Source: Lachnospiraceae bacterium
GTDB lineage: Bacteria; Bacillota; Clostridia; Lachnospirales; Lachnospiraceae
DNA: 64,000 nt
Reading direction: 5' to 3'
Assembly (NCBI GenBank): GCA_015057945.1
Contig: SVDD01000007.1
Coordinates: 26,830-90,829, forward strand
The translations under genes and the position numbers were made by a program. The notes under the pieces were generated by a model that did no database searches, was not told where the DNA came from, and saw only the letters and a list, made by a program, of their open reading frames with translations. Shown here piece by piece: positions 28,990-55,042 of the stretch (the stretch's first letter is position 1; every line of letters begins with the position of its first letter).

Positions 28990-29302
28990 AAGAATATACG
29001 GCCTTCTCGGATTATGTCAGAGGGCAGGCAAACTGAAAAGCGGCGAGTTCGCAGTGGAGAAATCTCTCAAGGGCCACAAATCACAGCTTGTGATAGTGCC
29101 TGAGGACGCGTCGGATAACACAAAGAAGAAGTTCAGAAATATGACTACATTCCGCAATGTTCCGTATTTCGAATTAGGCACAAAAGAAAAGCTGGGGATG
29201 CAGCTCGGCAAGTCCGAAAGGTCATCAATCAGCATAGAAGATGAAGGATTCGCTAAGGCGATGATCAAATATATTGACGGAGGTAATGTGAATGTCAGAT
29301 GA
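28979..29302 (+). CDS. ylxQ: L7Ae-family RNA-binding protein (YlxQ)
   Basis: [24 protein letters not shown]; TTG start; canonical position. Confidence 0.92.
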
Positions 29303-32066
29303 GAACCAGAAAGAAAATGGATTAAACAGCAAGGATGAAAAGAAGGGTGAAGCTCCTAAGAAAAAGAAGCTTGCTGTAGTTTTCCATTCCCAGAACTCCG
29401 CAAACCACAAAAATCATCCCCTTGGAGGAAAGCTTTCAACAGCTAAGGAGCAGGGCGCCAGAAAGACACAGCAGTCCGTAGAGCAGAAAGCACAGAGCGA
29501 GAAGCCCAAGAAGACAAGTCCTAACGGAAGACCTCTTCCACCCGGAACAGCCCGTGTGACTCCTCTTCGTGAGCTTAACGAGATCCAGAAGCGTCAGGCT
29601 GAGGAAGAAGCAAGGAGAGAGGCTGAGCGTAAGGCTCAGGAAGAAGAGGCCAGAAGAAAGGCCGCTGAAGAAGCAAAGAGAGAGGCTGAACGTAAGGCTC
29701 AGGAAGAAGAGGCCAGAAGAAAGGCCGCTGAAGAAGCAAAGAGAGAGGCTGCTCAGGCACCGGCTGAGAGAAGCTCAGACCGTCCTGTAAGAAACGGCGA
29801 GCAGAGACCTCGTTTCGATCGTTCAAATGACAGAAATGACCGTAACGATCATCAGTCAAAGCCTGCTTTCGGACAGAGAGGTGACCGCAACGGAGATCGT
29901 CCTCAGGGCGGCTTCCGTAAGGATGGTTCTCGCCCTGCAGGAGGTGCAGGCCGTCCTGCAGACAGAAACGGTCAGCAGAGACCGGGCCAGAGACCTGCAG
30001 GTTTCGGCGGACAGAGACGTCCTCAGGAGACTTCATCGGTTGCAGCCGTAGATATTTCTTCAAAGCCGACAGCCGGAAGAAATGCTCACAAGCCGGGTGA
30101 CAAGAATTTCGGAAACAAGAATTTCGACAACGAGAGGGCAGAGGCAGCAAAGAGAAATCGTAACAATCGTAAGCAGAACAAGTACACTGCAGAGCAGTCT
30201 TACGAAAGAGACGATGAGATGGCTGCACGCAAGAAGAAGACCGGCAAGGGCGCATTTATCAAGCCTGAGGTAGTTAAGCCGGTTGAAGAGGAGATCAAGT
30301 CCATCACCATACCTGAGGTTATCACCATCAAGGATCTGGCTGACAAGATGAAGCAGAAGCCTGCAGATATCATCAAGAAGCTCTTCATGAAGGGCCAGAT
30401 GGTAACACTTAATACAGAGCTTTCATACGAGGACGCCGAGAACATCGCTGTGGAATATGATATTCTTTGCGAGCAGGAAGAGAAGATCGACGTTATCGCT
30501 GAGCTTATCAAGGATGACATCGAGGATACAGATGAGGATATGGTTTCAAGACCTCCTGTAGTCTGTGTAATGGGTCACGTTGACCATGGTAAAACTTCTA
30601 TACTTGACGCCATCAGAAATACAAACGTAACTGCAAAGGAAGCCGGCGGTATCACACAGTCAATCGGTGCTTACCAGGTTTCTGTAAATGTAAACGGCGA
30701 AGACCGTGTCATCACCTTCCTTGATACACCGGGACACGAGGCATTCACAGCCATGCGTATGCGTGGTGCACAGTCAACCGATATCGCAGTTCTCGTTGTT
30801 GCTGCGGACGACGGTGTCATGCCGCAGACAGTCGAGGCTATCAACCATGCGAAGGCTGCCAATACTCCTATCATCGTAGCTATCAACAAGATCGATAAGG
30901 AGGGTGCTAACCCTGACCGTGTCAAGCAGGAGCTCATGAAATATGATCTTGTTCCTGAGGATTACGGCGGAGACACAATCTGTGTACCTGTATCTGCAAA
31001 GAAGAACATCGGCATCGAGGATCTTCTTGAGAACGTAGTTCTTGAGGCTGACGTTATGGAGCTTAAGGCTAACCAGAACCGTTCAGCTTACGGTGTAGTA
31101 ATCGAGGCAGAGCTTGATAAGGGACGCGGTTCCGTTGCAAGACTTCTCGTTCAGAAGGGTACTCTTCATCAGGGCGATGTAGTTGCTGTAGGTTCTGCTT
31201 ACGGTAAGGTACGTGCCATGACAGATGACAAGGGAAGACGTATCAAGAAGGCAGGTCCTTCACAGCCATGTGAGATTCTTGGTCTCAATGCGGTTCCTAA
31301 TGCCGGTGAGATATTCCAGGTTAAGGACAGCGAGAAGGAAGCAAAGGCTTATGCTGCAGCATTCGTAACAGAGAGCAAGCAGAAGAAGGTAGAGGAGTCC
31401 AAGAAGAAGGTTTCTCTTGATGCTCTCTTTGATCAGATCAAGGCAGGCGAGATCAAGGAACTTCCTATCGTTATCAAGGCTGACGTACAGGGTTCTGTTG
31501 AGGCCGTTAAGGATTCTCTTGAGAAGATCAAGAACGACGAGGTTGCCGTTAAGGTAATCCATGCCGGTGTTGGTGCGATCAGTGAGTCTGACGTTGTTCT
31601 CGCAAGTGCATCCAATGCTATCGTAATCGGTTTCGACGTTAAGCCGGACGCAACAGCAAAGGAGATCGCTGAGCGTGAGAACGTTGACGTAAGACTTTAC
31701 AATATTATTTACAAGGCTATCGAGGATATCGAAGATGCCATGAAGGGCATGCTCGCTCCTGTATACGAGGAGAAGGTTATCGGACATGCTGAGATCCGTC
31801 AGATCTTCAAGGCTTCCGGTGTCGGAAATATCGCCGGATGTATGGTCAAGGACGGTCTCGTACAGAGAGGTGCCAAGGCACGTATCATGCGCGGACCTAA
31901 GCAGGATCAGGTATTCGAGGGCGAGATTGCTTCCGTTAAGCGTTTCAAGGATGACGTAAAGGAAGTAAAGGCCGGCTACGAGTGTGGTCTTGTATTTGAC
32001 GGCTTCAACGAAATCGAGCTCGATGATTATGTTGAAGTTTATGTAATGGAAGAGGTTAAGCGTTGA
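29292..32066 (+). CDS. infB: Translation initiation factor IF-2
   Basis: [53 protein letters not shown]. Confidence 0.99.
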
Positions 32067-32479
32067 AAAAAAATTCTGTAAAAAACACCAGGATCAATGC
32101 AGAGGTCATGCGTGAGCTTTCAGTAGCCATCCGCGACCTCAAGGATCCCCGCATTTCACCTATGGTATCTGTTACAGGTGCGGAGGTTACTCCGGACCTT
32201 CAGTACTGCAAGGTATATATATCAGTTCTGGGAAGCGAGGAATCTCTCGCAAAGACTATGGAAGGACTGAAAGCAGCCGGCGGCTTCCTGAGAAGAGAGC
32301 TGGCTCAGACAGTAAATCTTCGTCATACACCTGAGCTTCAGTTTGTTGAAGATCATTCCATCGAGTATGGTGCCCGTATGGATGCCCTCATCAACAAGGT
32401 TGCGAAGGAAGATGCTGAAAAGCATGTTGACACAGAGGAGGATTCTCAGGAAGAGAACGACTCCGATGAAGAAAATTAA
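32063..32479 (+). CDS. rbfA: 30S ribosome-binding factor RbfA
   Basis: [34 protein letters not shown]. Confidence 0.97.
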
Positions 32480-32583: not shown

Positions 32584-33561
32584 ATGAATGAATTTCAGCA
32601 GTTGATCGAAGCTGCGGGCAGCATCTGTATACTGGGACATACCAATCCCGACGGAGATTGTCTGGGCTCGACTCTCGGCACAAAAAATTATATAAAGAAC
32701 CGTTATCCGGATAAAAAGGTCAATGTTTATCTCCAGGCGGCCAATGAAAAATTCCGTTTCATGCCCGGATTTTCAGACATCATACATGTTCCGTCGGACC
32801 GAAAGTATGATCTGTGCATCATGTGTGACTGCAATGGTTTCGACAGACTGGGAGATTACAAGACCCTGGCAGAGAATGCTTCTGTTCTTTATGTTGCAGA
32901 TCATCACATCCCGGGAAACCAGAAGTTCGAGCATGGCACCATCATCCCGGAAGCCTCCAGCACCTGCGAAGTCATTTTCGACCTTTTAGACAAAGAATCC
33001 ATAACCGGGGAAGTGGCAGAATGTCTCTATCTCGGCATTGTCCATGACACAGGAGTCTTCAAGTACAGCTGTACTTCTCCTCACACCATGGAGATCGCAG
33101 GCTTCCTCATGCAAAAAGGCATAGACTTCGGTCACATTATCGACGATACCTTTTTCACAAAGACCTATCCGCAGCAGCAGGTTCTGGGACGCGTTCTTAT
33201 GGAAAGTCTCATGGTCATGGACGGTCGCTGTCTGGCCGGCTGGCTAACATGCAAGGAAATGAAGTTCTACAATGTAGGCTCCAAGGATATCGACGGAATA
33301 GTCAGTGTGATGAGGGAAACCAGCGGCATAGACTGTGCCATCTTCATCTACGAAATGACCAACCAGAACTTCAAGGTAAGTCTCCGAAGCAACAACCATA
33401 TGCTTGACGTTGCCCGTGTTGCCGCTCATTTCGGCGGAGGCGGTCACAAGATGGCAGCCGGCTGCACTTTACAGGGATCATATCACGATGTTATAAACAA
33501 CATCACAAGGCAGCTGGCACTTCAGATGGATGCGCCTGACTTCATATCGAACAGAACATAA
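32584..33561 (+). CDS. nrnA: DHH-family phosphoesterase (NrnA nanoRNase/pAp phosphatase-like)
   Basis: GHTNPDGDC, DHH, DTGVF, SLRS, GGGHKMAAG; canonical position between rbfA and truB. Confidence 0.9.
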   Translation: MNEFQQLIEAAGSICILGHTNPDGDCLGSTLGTKNYIKNRYPDKKVNVYLQAANEKFRFMPGFSDIIHVPSDRKYDLCIMCDCNGFDRLGDYKTLAENASVLYVADHHIPGNQKFEHGTIIPEASSTCEVIFDLLDKESITGEVAECLYLGIVHDTGVFKYSCTSPHTMEIAGFLMQKGIDFGHIIDDTFFTKTYPQQQVLGRVLMESLMVMDGRCLAGWLTCKEMKFYNVGSKDIDGIVSVMRETSGIDCAIFIYEMTNQNFKVSLRSNNHMLDVARVAAHFGGGGHKMAAGCTLQGSYHDVINNITRQLALQMDAPDFISNRT

Positions 33562-33623: not shown

Positions 33624-33641
33624 TAATCTTACAGGAAATCA

Positions 33642-35234
33642 ATGGACGGAATTATAGTAGTTAAGAAGGAAAAGGATTGGACCAGCTTTGATGTTACAAA
33701 AAAGCTTCGATCCATCCTTCATGAGAAAAAAATAGGCCATACGGGAACACTCGATCCTATGGCAGAAGGTGTTCTGGTAGTCTGCGCAGGCATGGCCACC
33801 AAACTTGTTGATGCCATAGCCGGCACCACAAAAATCTATGAAGCCGAAATGAAGCTGGGCATCACTACAGACACAGAAGACACCACAGGGACCATCCTTG
33901 CGGAGAAGCCTGTGGCGGTTTCGGAAGAAGAGGTAAGAGCTGCCATAGAAAGCTTCATCGGAACTTACGATCAGATCCCTCCCATGTACAGTGCAAAAAA
34001 GATCAACGGAAAAAAGCTTTATGATCTTGCCAGACAGGGAAAGACAGTCGAGCGTAAGCCAAATCCCATAACCATACATGATATAAAGATAAATGAGATC
34101 AGTCTTCCCCATGTAAAGATGGAGGTCACCTGCTCAAAGGGAACCTACATCAGAACCCTTTGTAAGGATATAGGTGAAAAACTCGGAACAGGTGCTGCCA
34201 TGTCAGCGCTTCTCCGTACAAGAGTAGGTCAGTACGGAATCGAGGAAAGTCATACTCTCAGTGAGATATCTGCCATGGCAGAAAAGGGTGAGCTCTTCTC
34301 CATCATGAAGCCGCCTATCTTCATACCGGAACCCACAGTGGTCTCTTTCGGTAAGTTTGACGGAAGCCATCGCGGACATCAGCTCATATTTGAGAATATG
34401 TTCAGGATAGCATCGGAGAAGCACCTTAAAACAGCGGTATTGACCTTCTCCCAGAATCCGGAGAACCTTTTCACCGGAATCAGGAAAACCTCCATCTCAT
34501 CAGGTGACGAACATCTTACCAGACTTCGTAATCTTGGTTTTGATTATGTTTTTTCATATCCGGTGAACAGCGATACCATGAAGGTACCTGCCGAGCATTT
34601 CCTTCGGGATGTGCTTATAGAGGGTATGCACGCAGAAGACATCGTAGTCGGAACCGACTGCAGCTTCGGTCATAAGGCTCAGGGCAATGCCGAAATGCTC
34701 GCCTCACTTCAGGACAGATACGGGTATAAAGCCCACATCATAAAGAAGAGAGAGGTCCTTGATGAAAACGGAAATCCACGTGAGATCTCAAGCACATACA
34801 TAAGAGAAGAGATACAGAAGGGCAATGTAAAGCTCGCGGCTGAGCTTCTGGGACGGCACGTTTCTCTCAGCGGAACCGTTGTATACGGAAAGCAGATAGG
34901 TTCCACCGTACTGGGATTCCCTACCGCAAATCTGATTCCGAAGGAAGGAAAGACGATCCCCAAGGCAGGAGTTTATGTAAGCCGTGTACTCGTAGGTCAA
35001 AAGCTTTACAAAGGCATGACCAATGTAGGTACAAATCCTACGGTATCCGATGGCAATCCTGTGGATGTGGAGACCTTTATCATTGGCTTCAACGGTGATA
35101 TCTACGGAAAGAAGATAAGAGTGGAGTTCATGGACAGACTCAGGGATCAGGAGAAATTCCCATCTCTCGAGGAACTGAAAAAGCAGCTTGAAAGGGATGT
35201 GGAAAAGGCCGCACATTATCCCATGGATCTTTGA
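33642..35234 (+). CDS. truB-ribF: TruB-RibF fusion: tRNA pseudouridine-55 synthase core (no C-terminal domain) fused to riboflavin kinase/FAD synthetase
   Basis: aa 1 to about 225 TruB (GHTGTLDP, PPMYSAKK, SKGTYIR). From about aa 230 RibF (GKFDGSHRGH, ISSTYIRE, GFPTAN, NVGTNPT, LRDQEKF). Single uninterrupted frame of 530 aa. Confidence 0.92.
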   Translation: MDGIIVVKKEKDWTSFDVTKKLRSILHEKKIGHTGTLDPMAEGVLVVCAGMATKLVDAIAGTTKIYEAEMKLGITTDTEDTTGTILAEKPVAVSEEEVRAAIESFIGTYDQIPPMYSAKKINGKKLYDLARQGKTVERKPNPITIHDIKINEISLPHVKMEVTCSKGTYIRTLCKDIGEKLGTGAAMSALLRTRVGQYGIEESHTLSEISAMAEKGELFSIMKPPIFIPEPTVVSFGKFDGSHRGHQLIFENMFRIASEKHLKTAVLTFSQNPENLFTGIRKTSISSGDEHLTRLRNLGFDYVFSYPVNSDTMKVPAEHFLRDVLIEGMHAEDIVVGTDCSFGHKAQGNAEMLASLQDRYGYKAHIIKKREVLDENGNPREISSTYIREEIQKGNVKLAAELLGRHVSLSGTVVYGKQIGSTVLGFPTANLIPKEGKTIPKAGVYVSRVLVGQKLYKGMTNVGTNPTVSDGNPVDVETFIIGFNGDIYGKKIRVEFMDRLRDQEKFPSLEELKKQLERDVEKAAHYPMDL

Positions 35235-35334
35235 GTTCCCCTGCAATACGGAGCTACGTAAGACCTGACTAAAGTTAATCAAATATTTATGCTTATACAT
35301 TGACAAATATATAGGTTTTTGTTAGATTACAGTA

Positions 35335-35420
35335 GTATGCGCGTTGGCGTGGTTTTACGGAACTCCTTCCGGGAACTCCGTTAACGTAAGTTAATCGCGA
35401 TTTATCGATCGCGACAGTTA
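35335..35420 (+). promoter_or_regulatory. rpsO 5' leader, probable S15 autoregulatory RNA
   Basis: TTGACA (about 35301) ... TTACAG promoter region followed by paired stems (TTACGGA/TCCGTTAA, TCGCGAT/ATCGCGA). S15 leaders are established in Firmicutes. Confidence 0.5.
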
Positions 35421-35436
35421 TTTAGGAGGAATTATC

Positions 35437-35703
35437 ATGATTTCAAAAGAGAAGAAGGCAGAGATTATCGCACAGTACGGCCGTAAGGCAGGCGACACAG
35501 GTTCACCTGAGGTTCAGGTTGCTATCCTTACAGCAAGAATCAACGAGCTTACTGAGCACCTTAAGAAGAACCCTAAGGATCACCACTCAAGAAGAGGACT
35601 TCTTATGATGGTTGGTCAGAGAAGAGGACTTCTTCAGTACCTTGCCAAGACAGATCTTGAGGGATACAGATCACTCATCGAGAAGCTCGGTATCAGAAAG
35701 TAA
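35437..35703 (+). CDS. rpsO: 30S ribosomal protein S15
   Basis: [30 protein letters not shown]. Confidence 0.99.
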
Positions 35704-53373: not shown

Positions 53374-53486
53374 ATATTTTCTTCGGGGCAGGGTGTGATT
53401 CCCTACCGGCGGTATAGTCCGCGAGCCTTTGTGCATGAACCGGTGTGATTCCGGTACCGACAGTATAGTCTGGATGAGAGAAGAAA
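53374..53486 (+). ncRNA. FMN riboswitch (RFN element)
   Basis: TCTTCGGGGCAGGGTG..ATTCCCTACCGGCGGTATAG...CCGGTG..ATTCCGGTACCGACAGTATAGTCTGGATGAGAGAAGA; promoter TTGACA-N17-TAGTCT upstream. Confidence 0.95.
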
Positions 53487-53504
53487 CGTAATGACGCGAT
53501 TATT

Positions 53505-53540: not shown

Positions 53541-53565
53541 TTTCATTGTAAAGGAGAGTAGTATC

Positions 53566-54189
53566 ATGTCAAATAAGATTAATGTTCAGAAGCTGGTTTA
53601 CACAGGACTTCTTACAGCCCTTGCGGGAGTGCTCATGACCTTTGAGTTCAGCATTCCCTTCTTCCCGCCATTTTACAAGATAGACTTCAGTGATGTTCCC
53701 AGTGTCATCGCACTTTTCACCATGGGACCTTTATCCGGACTCTTCGTTGAGATAGCAAAGCTTGTCATCAAACTTATCACTGTGGGAACAAACAGTATGT
53801 ATGTTGGAGAAGTTTCAAACATGCTCGGAGCATTGCTCTTTATATTCCCTCTGTGGTTCCTTTTCAAGAAGACAGGAAAAACAGATAAGGGTATAGCAAT
53901 AGCTCTTATTACGAGCGTTATCATCCGCACAGCATGGATGTGCTTCTGCAATGCTTTTATCACACTTCCTATGTACGCAGCGGCAATGGGCTTAAGCATT
54001 AACGATGTGGTAGTTATGGTTTCCTCAGTTAACCCGATGATCAAGGATCTTCCTACATTCATCATCCTTGCTACCATTCCTTTCAACCTTATCAAGTTAT
54101 GTCTTGTATATGCACTTTCGTTTGTGCTTTTCTCAAGACTCAGAGTTTCCGTTCCCGGATTTCGGGCAATGAAGACAACCAATGTGTGA
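53566..54189 (+). CDS. ribU: ECF transporter S component, probably riboflavin-specific (RibU)
   Basis: FYKIDFSDVP, GEVSN and PFNLIK S-component motifs; directly under the FMN riboswitch; AAGGAG RBS before ATG 53566. Confidence 0.85.
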   Translation: MSNKINVQKLVYTGLLTALAGVLMTFEFSIPFFPPFYKIDFSDVPSVIALFTMGPLSGLFVEIAKLVIKLITVGTNSMYVGEVSNMLGALLFIFPLWFLFKKTGKTDKGIAIALITSVIIRTAWMCFCNAFITLPMYAAAMGLSINDVVVMVSSVNPMIKDLPTFIILATIPFNLIKLCLVYALSFVLFSRLRVSVPGFRAMKTTNV

Positions 54190-54372: not shown

Positions 54373-54447
54373 CGGGGTGTGGCTCAGTTTGGCTAGAGCG
54401 CTTGGTTAGGGACCAAGAGATCGTGGGTTCAAATCCCGTCACTCCGA
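54373..54447 (+). tRNA. tRNA-Pro with anticodon AGG (A34)
   Basis: Complete cloverleaf: acceptor CGGGGTG/CACTCCG + A73, anticodon arm CTTGG-TTAGGGA-CCAAG (AGG at 54408-10), T loop TTCAAAT; CCA not encoded. Confidence 0.92.
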
Positions 54448-54681: not shown

Positions 54682-54756
54682 CGGGGTGTGGCTCAGTTTG
54701 GCTAGAGCACCTGGTTTGGGACCAGGGGGTCGCAGGTTCGAATCCTGTCACCCCGA
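54682..54756 (+). tRNA. tRNA-Pro(TGG)
   Basis: CCTGG-TTTGGGA-CCAGG anticodon arm; own promoter TTGACA (54619-24)-N17-TAATAT. Confidence 0.97.
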
Positions 54757-54967: not shown

Positions 54968-55042
54968 CGGGGTGTGGCTCAGTTTGGCTAGAGCACCTGG
55001 TTTGGGACCAGGGGGTCGCAGGTTCGAATCCTGTCACCCCGA
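54968..55042 (+). tRNA. tRNA-Pro(TGG), identical second copy
   Basis: Identical to 54682-54756; own promoter TTGACA (54904-09)-N18-TATAAT. Confidence 0.97.

Follow-up and report, generated by a model that had tools for sequence, protein, structure and literature searches.

The locus described here raises a simple question: is a gene in which truB appears to run straight into ribF genuine, and, if it is, how did it come about and do its two halves depend on each other? The window, as the whole 64-kb stretch of DNA that was analysed is called here, belongs to a rumen Oribacterium. It contains, on the + strand, a frame of 530 codons plus a stop codon, which starts with the ATG at 33642 and ends with the stop at 35232–35234. 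It is likely that this gene specifies a trifunctional polypeptide that was fixed through a tolerated ancestral deletion, and that the two halves of the product work independently. The evidence set out below is the basis on which we infer an origin by deletion, activity in both halves and the independence of the halves.

Domains of the TruB-RibF protein

The preliminary description of this DNA proposed one 530-aa frame in which a TruB core is followed by a complete bifunctional RibF, and the open reading frame, Pfam and NCBIfam agree on this arrangement (Table 1). The TruB_N profile is matched from position 1 to 149 of 149 (193.7 bits, with a cutoff of 27.3), and the Flavokinase profile is also matched over its full length. 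Among NCBIfam models, TIGR00431 (TruB) scores 249.2 bits over residues 1–208 against a curated cutoff of 151.45, TIGR00083 (RibF) scores 222.5 bits over residues 235–526 against a curated cutoff of 184.35, and NF004162 scores 247.8 bits against 241. The motifs that had been named are all present. In the TruB half, the catalytic Asp38 (codon 33753–33755) is intact within GHTGTLDP; the RibF half contains H243-R-G-H246 and P427-T-A-N430, as well as S383-S384 (ISST).

Table 1. Features of the fused gene and of its surroundings, with positions in the window
Feature	Position	Strand	Evidence
infB	29292-32066	+	ORF
rbfA	32063-32479	+	ORF, Pfam RBFA
DHH/DHHA1 NrnA-like gene	32584-33561	+	ORF, Pfam DHH/DHHA1
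AGGA, Shine-Dalgarno-like, five bases 5′ of the ATG	33633..33636	+	sequence reading
Whole fusion gene, truB(no PUA)-ribF	33642..35234	+	ORF list, sequence, Pfam, NCBIfam; identical public protein P0001
TruB_N catalytic domain, residues 23-170, GHTGTLDP inside	33708..34151	+	Pfam PF01509, E 3e-57
TruB_C_2, first two thirds kept, residues 171-214	34152..34283	+	Pfam PF16198, profile 1-44 of 66
Junction/linker, residues 215-228, KGELFSIMKPPIFI	34284..34325	+	gap between Pfam domains
FMN adenylyltransferase module FAD_syn, residues 229-374; HxGH at 34368-34379	34326..34763	+	Pfam PF06574, E 2e-36
Riboflavin kinase module Flavokinase, residues 403-525; PTAN at 34920-34931	34848..35216	+	Pfam PF01687, E 2e-42
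Promoter-like site before rpsO, TTGACA-17-TAGATT	35300-35328	+	consensus scan
rpsO, 3′ of the fusion	35437-35703	+	ORF

Residues 1–215 of the fusion align across the whole catalytic core of the bacterial TruB proteins of known structure (E. coli 1K8W and 1R3F, T. maritima 1R3E and 1ZE2) with an E value of 5e-50 and about 40% identity, and the AF2 model superposes on them. Like these proteins, the fusion has the catalytic Asp of GHxGTLDP, a conserved Tyr and the thumb-loop region, and D38, Y66 and R171 align with the T. maritima motif. Unlike them, it lacks the C-terminal 80–90 residues, which comprise the end of the core and the PUA domain that most bacterial TruB proteins have, and has RibF in their place. 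TruB homology stops at residue 216 of 309 in T. maritima and 232 of 314 in E. coli, and full-length fusions and stand-alone relatives have 70–90 residues more than the TruB part in the window. The earlier statement that the C-terminal domain of TruB is absent is correct for the PUA domain; of TruB_C_2, which belongs to the catalytic core, two thirds are kept, and this segment forms the last β-hairpin and helix of the core (strand 185–195 and helix 206–214 in the AF2 model).

The second half, residues 229–526, matches type-I RibF/RibC over full length (C. ammoniagenes 2X0K, S. pneumoniae 3OP1, T. maritima 1MRZ), with an E value of 6e-39 and a TM score of 0.88 to 3OP1. It keeps the HxGH, ISST and PTAN motifs and the catalytic Glu of these enzymes, and differs from them in that the segment before the first β-strand is the TruB linker, for which roughly the first 10–15 residues of a stand-alone RibF have been exchanged. 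The FMN adenylyltransferase (FMNAT) module is a Rossmann-type nucleotidyltransferase. The 14 residues of the linker stand where the PUA domain, the spacer between the genes and the N-terminus of RibF would otherwise be. The evidence from the AF2 model consists of pLDDT (89 overall and at least 90 in the linker, which is predicted to be ordered), a pTM of 0.82 and fold matches, in which each half finds solved TruB or FADS structures; no solved structure among these matches has an N-terminal TruB on RibF.

The product would be a single chain of about 59 kDa that carries three predicted enzymatic activities, the activity of either half being predicted from its conserved residues. The N-terminal TruB core would isomerise U55 of tRNA via Asp38 without a PUA domain, and it would be followed, after the ordered linker, by a type-I bifunctional FAD synthetase made up of FMNAT and riboflavin kinase modules.

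Authenticity and conservation of the fusion

Such a gene might stem from an error of assembly or sequencing, or from a lesion that recently turned it into a pseudogene in this one genome. An A7 homopolymer at 33726–33732 is a conceivable site for an indel error, and no other support for this reading was found. Against it, no indel is seen at the junction, which the preliminary description had proposed to check, in contigs from four independent DNA studies, and three metatranscriptome contigs from three RNA runs span it without gaps. Cultured isolates have this junction too, and the TruB-RibF architecture is found in more than 110 protein clusters. An artefact or indel at the junction is refuted by the contigs, the wider reading has next to no probability, and the fusion is real. 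Strain variants, which are spread over both halves, comprise 27 synonymous and 7 non-synonymous changes, and the gene has been kept under purifying selection since its origin.

Across 33 fusions with identities of 43–83%, the catalytic residues do not vary in either half. In the TruB half these are H33, D38, Y66, R171 and the GHxGTLDP motif; in the FMNAT module, G237-G241, H243, G245, H246 and S383-S384; and in the riboflavin kinase module, P427, T428, N430 and E477. The carriers with names are Oribacterium sp. C9, P6A1 and WCC10, O. parvum, O. asaccharolyticum and oral taxon 108, in which the fusion is on a contig of 2.5 Mb. The distance from GTYIR to HxGH is exactly 80 aa in Oribacterium proteins from the rumen and the mouth that are 49–56% identical. 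This spacing, together with a homologous linker, is found in the window protein (P0001), P0035, P0038 and P0096, and it sets the Oribacterium type apart from other TruB-RibF fusions. The linker pattern L(K/L)PP.Y...T..(S/T)FGKFDG is common to Oribacterium species, and conservation of the linker residues ends with the genus. Proteins of 330 aa and of 423–430 aa in oral Oribacterium clusters, which at first sight looked like truncated variants with a disrupted TruB half, are unrelated proteins that a clustering artefact had brought in, namely the product of the adjacent DHH gene and another enzyme.

It could be argued that the TruB half is decaying or catalytically silent, that it serves at most as a tRNA-binding or chaperone module and that the gene is effectively ribF with an N-terminal extension. 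The loss of the PUA domain fits this, as does the automatic NCBI name “bifunctional riboflavin kinase/FAD synthetase”, which omits TruB. An engineered E. coli TruB without PUA, made with a stop after M244, is still active on tRNA, although its catalysis is about 25-fold slower; the loss has little effect on how it binds tRNA or acts as a chaperone (PMC13492117). By analogy with that enzyme, the TruB half of the fusion may be slow; its homology ends about 12 residues before the engineered cut. A silent TruB half is nevertheless very unlikely, since it is at odds with the TIGR00431 score (249 bits, cutoff 151), with the invariance of the catalytic Asp, GHxGTLDP, Tyr66 and Arg171 in all 33 fusions down to 43% identity, and with variants in the TruB half that are mostly synonymous. 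It is also at odds with natural forms that lack PUA. Such TruB reading frames occur in Bacteroidota and Elusimicrobia and end at about the same point; those of Bacteroidota end 177–200 residues past GTLDP, compared to 181 for the TruB part in the window, and in the Bacteroidota loci listed they are the only truB frame at the operon position. The eukaryotic orthologs Pus4/TRUB1 also lack PUA (PMC13492117). All of these PUA-less enzymes, natural and engineered, are free-standing, whereas the core of the fusion runs into a second enzyme. The Oribacterium protein is in this respect a natural experiment, in which a bacterial TruB has long been without PUA, and it complements the engineered E. coli form.

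A single reading frame might also give two proteins, through an internal start near Met212 or Met222 or through proteolysis in the linker, so that TruB and RibF would remain functionally separate. In-frame ATG codons are indeed present at residues 212 and 222, and the stretch AGGGTGAG lies 12 bases before the second. This Shine-Dalgarno-like element is poorly spaced, however, the Met222 column holds M, V or L in Oribacterium homologs, and Met212 is variable. In addition, the linker is predicted to be ordered in the AF2 model, there is no stop codon that would end a TruB fragment, and in the RNA contigs no 5′ ends pile up at the site. An internal start for a separate RibF was rejected as a candidate on the grounds of spacing and conservation, and the two-protein reading is kept as an unlikely rival to the single trifunctional polypeptide.

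Neighbourhood, distribution and origin

The gene occupies the truB-ribF slot of the infB operon. The slot is syntenic in O. parvum, and the upstream gene order is identical in the O. parvum locus L082. An RNA contig covering 33406–33686 runs from the DHH gene into the fusion, and a consensus scan found no terminator-like site between the two. The depth of the rpsO RNA contig is far above that of the fusion. No second truB or ribF is found within the 64-kb window. As the preliminary description had claimed, an FMN riboswitch (53375–53489, 115 bits) and, after it, an ECF S component (53563–54186) lie about 18 kb away, downstream of the fusion; beyond these two, the window contains no riboflavin biosynthesis or extra flavin genes.

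It had also been stated that truB and ribF are adjacent but separate genes in the Firmicute infB operon. Among relatives, this arrangement is present in all 78 complete loci of the matches listed, a sample drawn from taxa other than Oribacterium, and Lachnospiraceae relatives keep the PUA tail of TruB. In the loci listed, the two genes often overlap or are parted by a single in-frame stop, and about a third of the genomes among the matches listed are a single stop codon short of a fusion.

A search for proteins with both TruB and RibF domains, another of the checks proposed at the outset, found them to be widespread, with 82 fusions among the best 150 representatives at 50% identity. Three architectures can be distinguished: PUA-less, full-length and reverse order. 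About 50 of the 82 keep a full TruB including the PUA tail, with a spacer of 65–240 aa, and the reverse order is represented by one protein (P0107). PUA-less fusions recur in several lineages, and one clade, the P0212 group, has TruB and FMNAT and has lost the kinase module. A neighbor-joining tree with Fitch parsimony gives about 18–20 fusion origins, a count that comes from a noisy tree of 215 residues in which the “stand-alone” neighbor P0213 is probably a truncated fusion; judged from this tree, the independent origins are probably several. The many independent fusions, in three architectures, arose where truB and ribF lie close together, and they illustrate that tightly packed operon neighbors fuse again and again.

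The fusion of neighboring genes by an in-frame deletion, suggested in the preliminary description, remains the best account of its origin, given the 78 separate loci and the PUA tails of Lachnospiraceae. The deletion is not private to this genome; it is old, fixed and genus-wide in Oribacterium, with identical junction spacing, and similar fusions have arisen many times elsewhere. The ancestral setting would have been a nusA-infB-rbfA-nrnA-truB-ribF-rpsO-pnp operon with truB and ribF adjacent. In the ancestor of Oribacterium, an in-frame deletion would have reached from the 3′ end of truB, which encodes the PUA domain, across the intergenic spacer and into the first codons of ribF. The cell would have tolerated such a loss, since TruB is active in the absence of PUA and RibF requires nothing ahead of its first β-strand.

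Probable independence of the halves

The two halves are most likely independent, and the fusion would therefore be a by-product of tight gene packing and not a coupling device. The alternative is that the fusion ties FMN and FAD production to modification of the tRNA T-arm, either by supplying FAD to TrmFO, which methylates U54 beside Ψ55, or by placing FMNAT in the role of PUA at the acceptor end. Several observations would fit such coupling: fusions are frequent and have arisen repeatedly, once in reverse order; PUA-less forms recur; one clade retains TruB and FMNAT after loss of the kinase module; and the AF2 model has an ordered linker and a confident domain arrangement. Yet all the fusions seen are found where the two genes are neighbors to begin with, the genes are separate in the great majority of relatives, no trmFO is present within the 64-kb window, the linker residues are not conserved beyond the genus, and no support for coupling was found in the literature. 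Recurrence is expected even without selection, because so many of the genomes listed are a single stop codon from a fusion. FAD is a tightly held cofactor of TrmFO, and this enzyme is not known to depend on a local FAD supply. The proposed link to TrmFO and the T-arm is unsupported, as adjacency and tight spacing, which the fusions track, are a sufficient explanation, and coupling in general is improbable.

The PUA domain normally contacts the acceptor end of tRNA. A more specific form of coupling would have FMNAT held rigidly at the PUA site, where it would either position the tRNA in place of PUA or make flavin synthesis responsive to tRNA binding, which would link the supply of flavin to T-arm modification, with FAD-dependent TrmFO acting on the adjacent U54. 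The ordered linker and high pTM in the model hint at a fixed inter-domain arrangement, perhaps one beyond passive tethering, and the repeated PUA-less fusions could reflect selection rather than mere tolerance. If this reading were true, the recurrent PUA-less TruB-FMNAT proteins, including the kinase-less clade, would be the outcome of selection for the arrangement; we regard it as distinctly improbable. An influence of the halves on each other would constitute a new link between flavin supply and tRNA modification, and nothing here points in that direction.

The protein is essentially an ordinary fusion of neighboring genes. A literature search found no paper describing a TruB-RibF fusion, and the work found on both genes treats a truB-ribF operon with separate genes. 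The fusion itself is already known from databases, and the caveat that wide prior annotation would lower its novelty applies. The protein cluster of the window is already in RefSeq and GenBank, and some records of the architecture bear the name [quoted passage not shown]; in the window's own cluster, all three activities are named once. The main significance of the locus concerns annotation. Oribacterium is a common rumen and oral genus, and the RefSeq names “bifunctional riboflavin kinase/FAD synthetase” and “TruB” each hide one half of the protein; therefore, inventories of its pathways and tRNA modifications can wrongly list truB or ribF as absent.

Architecture of the fusion protein

The TruB-RibF gene carries AGGA five bases 5′ of its ATG and encodes one frame in which a TruB core runs directly into a complete RibF, as the preliminary description had read it and as ORF, Pfam, NCBIfam and motif evidence confirms. 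The product passes the NCBIfam equivalogs for TruB (TIGR00431, 249 bits against a curated cutoff of 151) and RibF (TIGR00083, 222 against 184), and also the RibF model NF004162 (248 against 241). Its motifs are GHTGTLDP with Asp38, H243-R-G-H246, S383-S384 and P427-T-A-N430.

The reported absence of the TruB C-terminal domain also holds, as alignment to TruBs of solved structure stops before the PUA, the RNA-binding domain typical of bacterial TruB. Residues 4–216 of 309 in the T. maritima enzyme align to fusion residues 3–215, and residues 12–232 of 314 in the E. coli enzyme to 2–222, so that the final 80–90 residues of canonical TruB (the core end and the whole PUA) are missing. FAD synthetases of solved structure align over their full length to residues 226–523, and 14 residues bridge the TruB helix and the first RibF β-strand.

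Features of the TruB-RibF gene and of other loci in the window
Feature	Position	Strand	Detail
TruB-RibF fusion ORF	33642–35234	+	530 aa
TruB_N	residues 23–170		Pfam, whole profile
TruB_C_2	residues 171–214		Pfam, profile 1–44 of 66 only
FAD_syn	residues 229–374		Pfam
Flavokinase	residues 403–525		Pfam
FMN riboswitch	53375–53489	+	115 bits
ECF-transporter S component	53563–54186	+	PF12822; weak match to riboflavin-type PF07155
tRNA gene	54373–54447	+	first of three in a row, just 3′ of ECF S component
tRNA gene	54682–54756	+	second
tRNA gene	54968–55042	+	third
Clostridiales-1 RNA, RF01699	20519–20676	+	
Clostridiales-1 RNA, RF01699	22412–22574	-	
Clostridiales-1 RNA, RF01699	25426–25588	+	
Clostridiales-1 RNA, RF01699	53125–53287	-	
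Clostridiales-1 RNA, RF01699	56329–56491	+	
Clostridiales-1 RNA, RF01699	58135–58297	+	

An AlphaFold2 model built on a 33-sequence alignment has a mean pLDDT of 89 and a pTM of 0.82; the linker (215–228) reaches pLDDT ≥ 90, and confidence drops only in the TruB thumb-loop region (111–140) and in one kinase loop. Foldseek matches the RibF half to FAD synthetases (3OP1, TM 0.88) and the TruB half to TruB 1K8W (TM 0.74), and no solved chain found by it covers both halves. The evidence best fits a trifunctional polypeptide of predicted activities, whose halves would work independently. It is improbable that internal initiation or cleavage yields two proteins from this ORF, as candidate internal Met codons are not conserved, an SD-like element is badly spaced, and the model predicts an ordered linker.

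Integrity, variation and transcription of the gene

Eight public runs each contain all sampled 31-mers of the fusion gene. At the junction (34290–34340), contigs from four independent DNA studies differ by substitutions only, with no insertion or deletion, and metatranscriptome contigs of three runs, from libraries that may include DNA, cross it intact (34128–34490, 34170–34576 and 33927–34485). An assembly or sequencing artefact is thus refuted. An A7 homopolymer at 33726–33732, within the E-K-K-I codons just 5′ of the catalytic GHTGTLDP, is constant in length in all DNA and RNA contigs compared.

Strain substitutions, located in both halves, are 27 synonymous versus 7 non-synonymous. Among 33 fusions (43–83% identity), the invariant residues are H33, G35–P39 including Asp38, Y66 and R171 in TruB, and G237–G241, H243, G245, H246, S383, S384, P427, T428, N430, E477 and R501 in RibF. 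With the TruB active site invariant and substitutions mostly synonymous, it is most unlikely that the TruB half is a silent remnant.

A metatranscriptome contig (33406–33686), again from a library that may include DNA, bridges the upstream DHH gene and the fusion, which fits their co-transcription; terminator-like sites were found neither 5′ of nor within the fusion gene. The downstream gene rpsO is preceded by a promoter-like site of its own (TTGACA-17-TAGATT, TG-extended, region 35300–35703), and metatranscriptome contigs cover rpsO tens to hundreds of times more deeply than the fusion. The rpsO leader contains a hairpin at 35395–35414 and, in one related strain, a 4-base deletion at 35404.

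Distribution and origins of TruB-RibF fusions

The architecture is widespread, with the same four Pfam domains in more than 110 clusters (100% to 40% identity) in a search of ~5.8 billion proteins. The window fusion's 90% cluster includes RefSeq/GenBank proteins of Oribacterium sp. C9 and P6A1, and one GenBank record in it is named [quoted passage not shown]. The fusion is therefore not a new discovery, and the novelty caveat of the preliminary description applies. The usual RefSeq names, “bifunctional riboflavin kinase/FAD synthetase” or “TruB”, each conceal half the protein. In full-text searches no publication dealt with the fusion, which suggests that its biochemistry is unstudied.

More distant carriers are Oribacterium sp. 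WCC10, O. parvum, O. asaccharolyticum and Oribacterium sp. oral taxon 108, and gene order is conserved in O. parvum (rimP-nusA-ylxR-L7Ae-infB-rbfA-DHH-fusion-rpsO-pnp). Exactly 80 residues separate GTYIR from HxGH in Oribacterium proteins of rumen and oral origin that are only 49–56% identical to the window fusion, and the fusions share the linker pattern L(K/L)PP.Y...T..(S/T)FGKFDG. This spacing and linker point to one ancestral fusion event for the genus. Member counts of the 90% clusters of oral Oribacterium proteins P0038 and P0096 are unreliable, because a 330-aa neighbouring DHH protein and a different 423–430-aa enzyme, both unrelated, are listed as members.

When 1.84 billion representatives were searched exhaustively with HMMER, TruB-RibF fusions made up 82 of the 150 best 50%-identity clusters, and the length of their spacer between TruB core and RibF is bimodal. 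Approximately 31 have a short spacer (0–36 residues) and lack the PUA, as in the window, while ~50 have a long spacer (65–240 residues) and a full TruB with its PUA tail, an architecture confirmed by Pfam for P0103 and P0108. A single metagenomic contig encodes the reverse order, RibF then full-length TruB (P0107, 604 aa, L081 2813–4627), at the matching operon position, downstream of rbfA and the DHH gene.

The short type is not confined to Oribacterium: it is also present in other Lachnospiraceae, Defluviitaleaceae, Oscillospiraceae, an Actinomycetes MAG and a complete Kiritimatiellota genome, with linkers unrelated in length and sequence. In an NJ tree of the TruB core, the Oribacterium clade adjoins PUA-containing stand-alone TruBs, and other short-type clades adjoin such TruBs, long-type fusions or naturally short TruBs. 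With these three kinds of neighbours, the short type must have arisen along several different paths; a parsimony estimate of ~18–20 events is too high because of noise in the tree and reads only as “several”.

A monophyletic clade from AT-rich organisms (P0212, P0225, P0237, P0247, P0215 and P0292) has an Oribacterium-like junction, with 79 aa from GTYIR to HxGH and the linker KP.YY...VVTFGKF. The first four (423–443 aa) end naturally after “LLGR”, and are thus PUA-less TruB joined to the FMN adenylyltransferase module without riboflavin kinase; in P0215 and P0292 (482–494 aa) the kinase module is degenerate and without PTAN.

Among the GTDB loci listed (L001–L080), truB and ribF are adjacent and separate in all 78 complete loci, typically overlapping (many by 3–60 bases) or with only a few bases between them. 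Roughly one third have both genes in one frame with exactly one in-frame stop codon between them, and are therefore one point mutation away from a long-type fusion. The short type results if a deletion begins with the PUA region and ends immediately ahead of the first RibF strand. The window fusion probably goes back to an ancestral deletion that joined neighbouring operon genes in frame and was then kept by purifying selection; the deletion first proposed was right in kind and wrong in scale, since the event is old, fixed and genus-wide.

TruBs of other organisms indicate why loss of the PUA can be tolerated. Eukaryotic TruB orthologs lack one. In Bacteroidota and Elusimicrobia (L001–L006, L023), truB ORFs end 177–200 residues past GTLDP, compared to 181 for the window TruB part, and each is directly followed by ribF (Dawidia, Cytophagaceae, Cyclobacteriaceae, Chitinophagaceae, Spirosomataceae, Polaribacter and an Elusimicrobia MAG); these are natural PUA-less TruBs. 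E. coli TruB cut after M244 retains activity (PMC13492117). Earlier work, as cited there, found tRNA binding and chaperone function of PUA-less E. coli TruB little affected and its catalytic step 25-fold slower (PMC13492117).

Flavin supply and other features of the window

The proposed tie between FAD synthesis and T-arm modification through FAD-dependent TrmFO is unsupported: the 64-kb window holds no trmFO (nor rib biosynthesis genes or a second truB or ribF), most relatives keep the genes separate, and truB/ribF adjacency sufficiently explains the recurrence of fusions. The FMN-riboswitch-controlled S component is real; the riboswitch lies directly 5′ of it, and together they point to regulated riboflavin uptake, for which RibF activity would be important. 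The pair carries no information on coupling to TruB. RF01699 has six full-length copies in 64 kb, on both strands and mostly intergenic (92–113 bits; gathering score 48), a density suggestive of a dispersed repeat and not of one sRNA gene.
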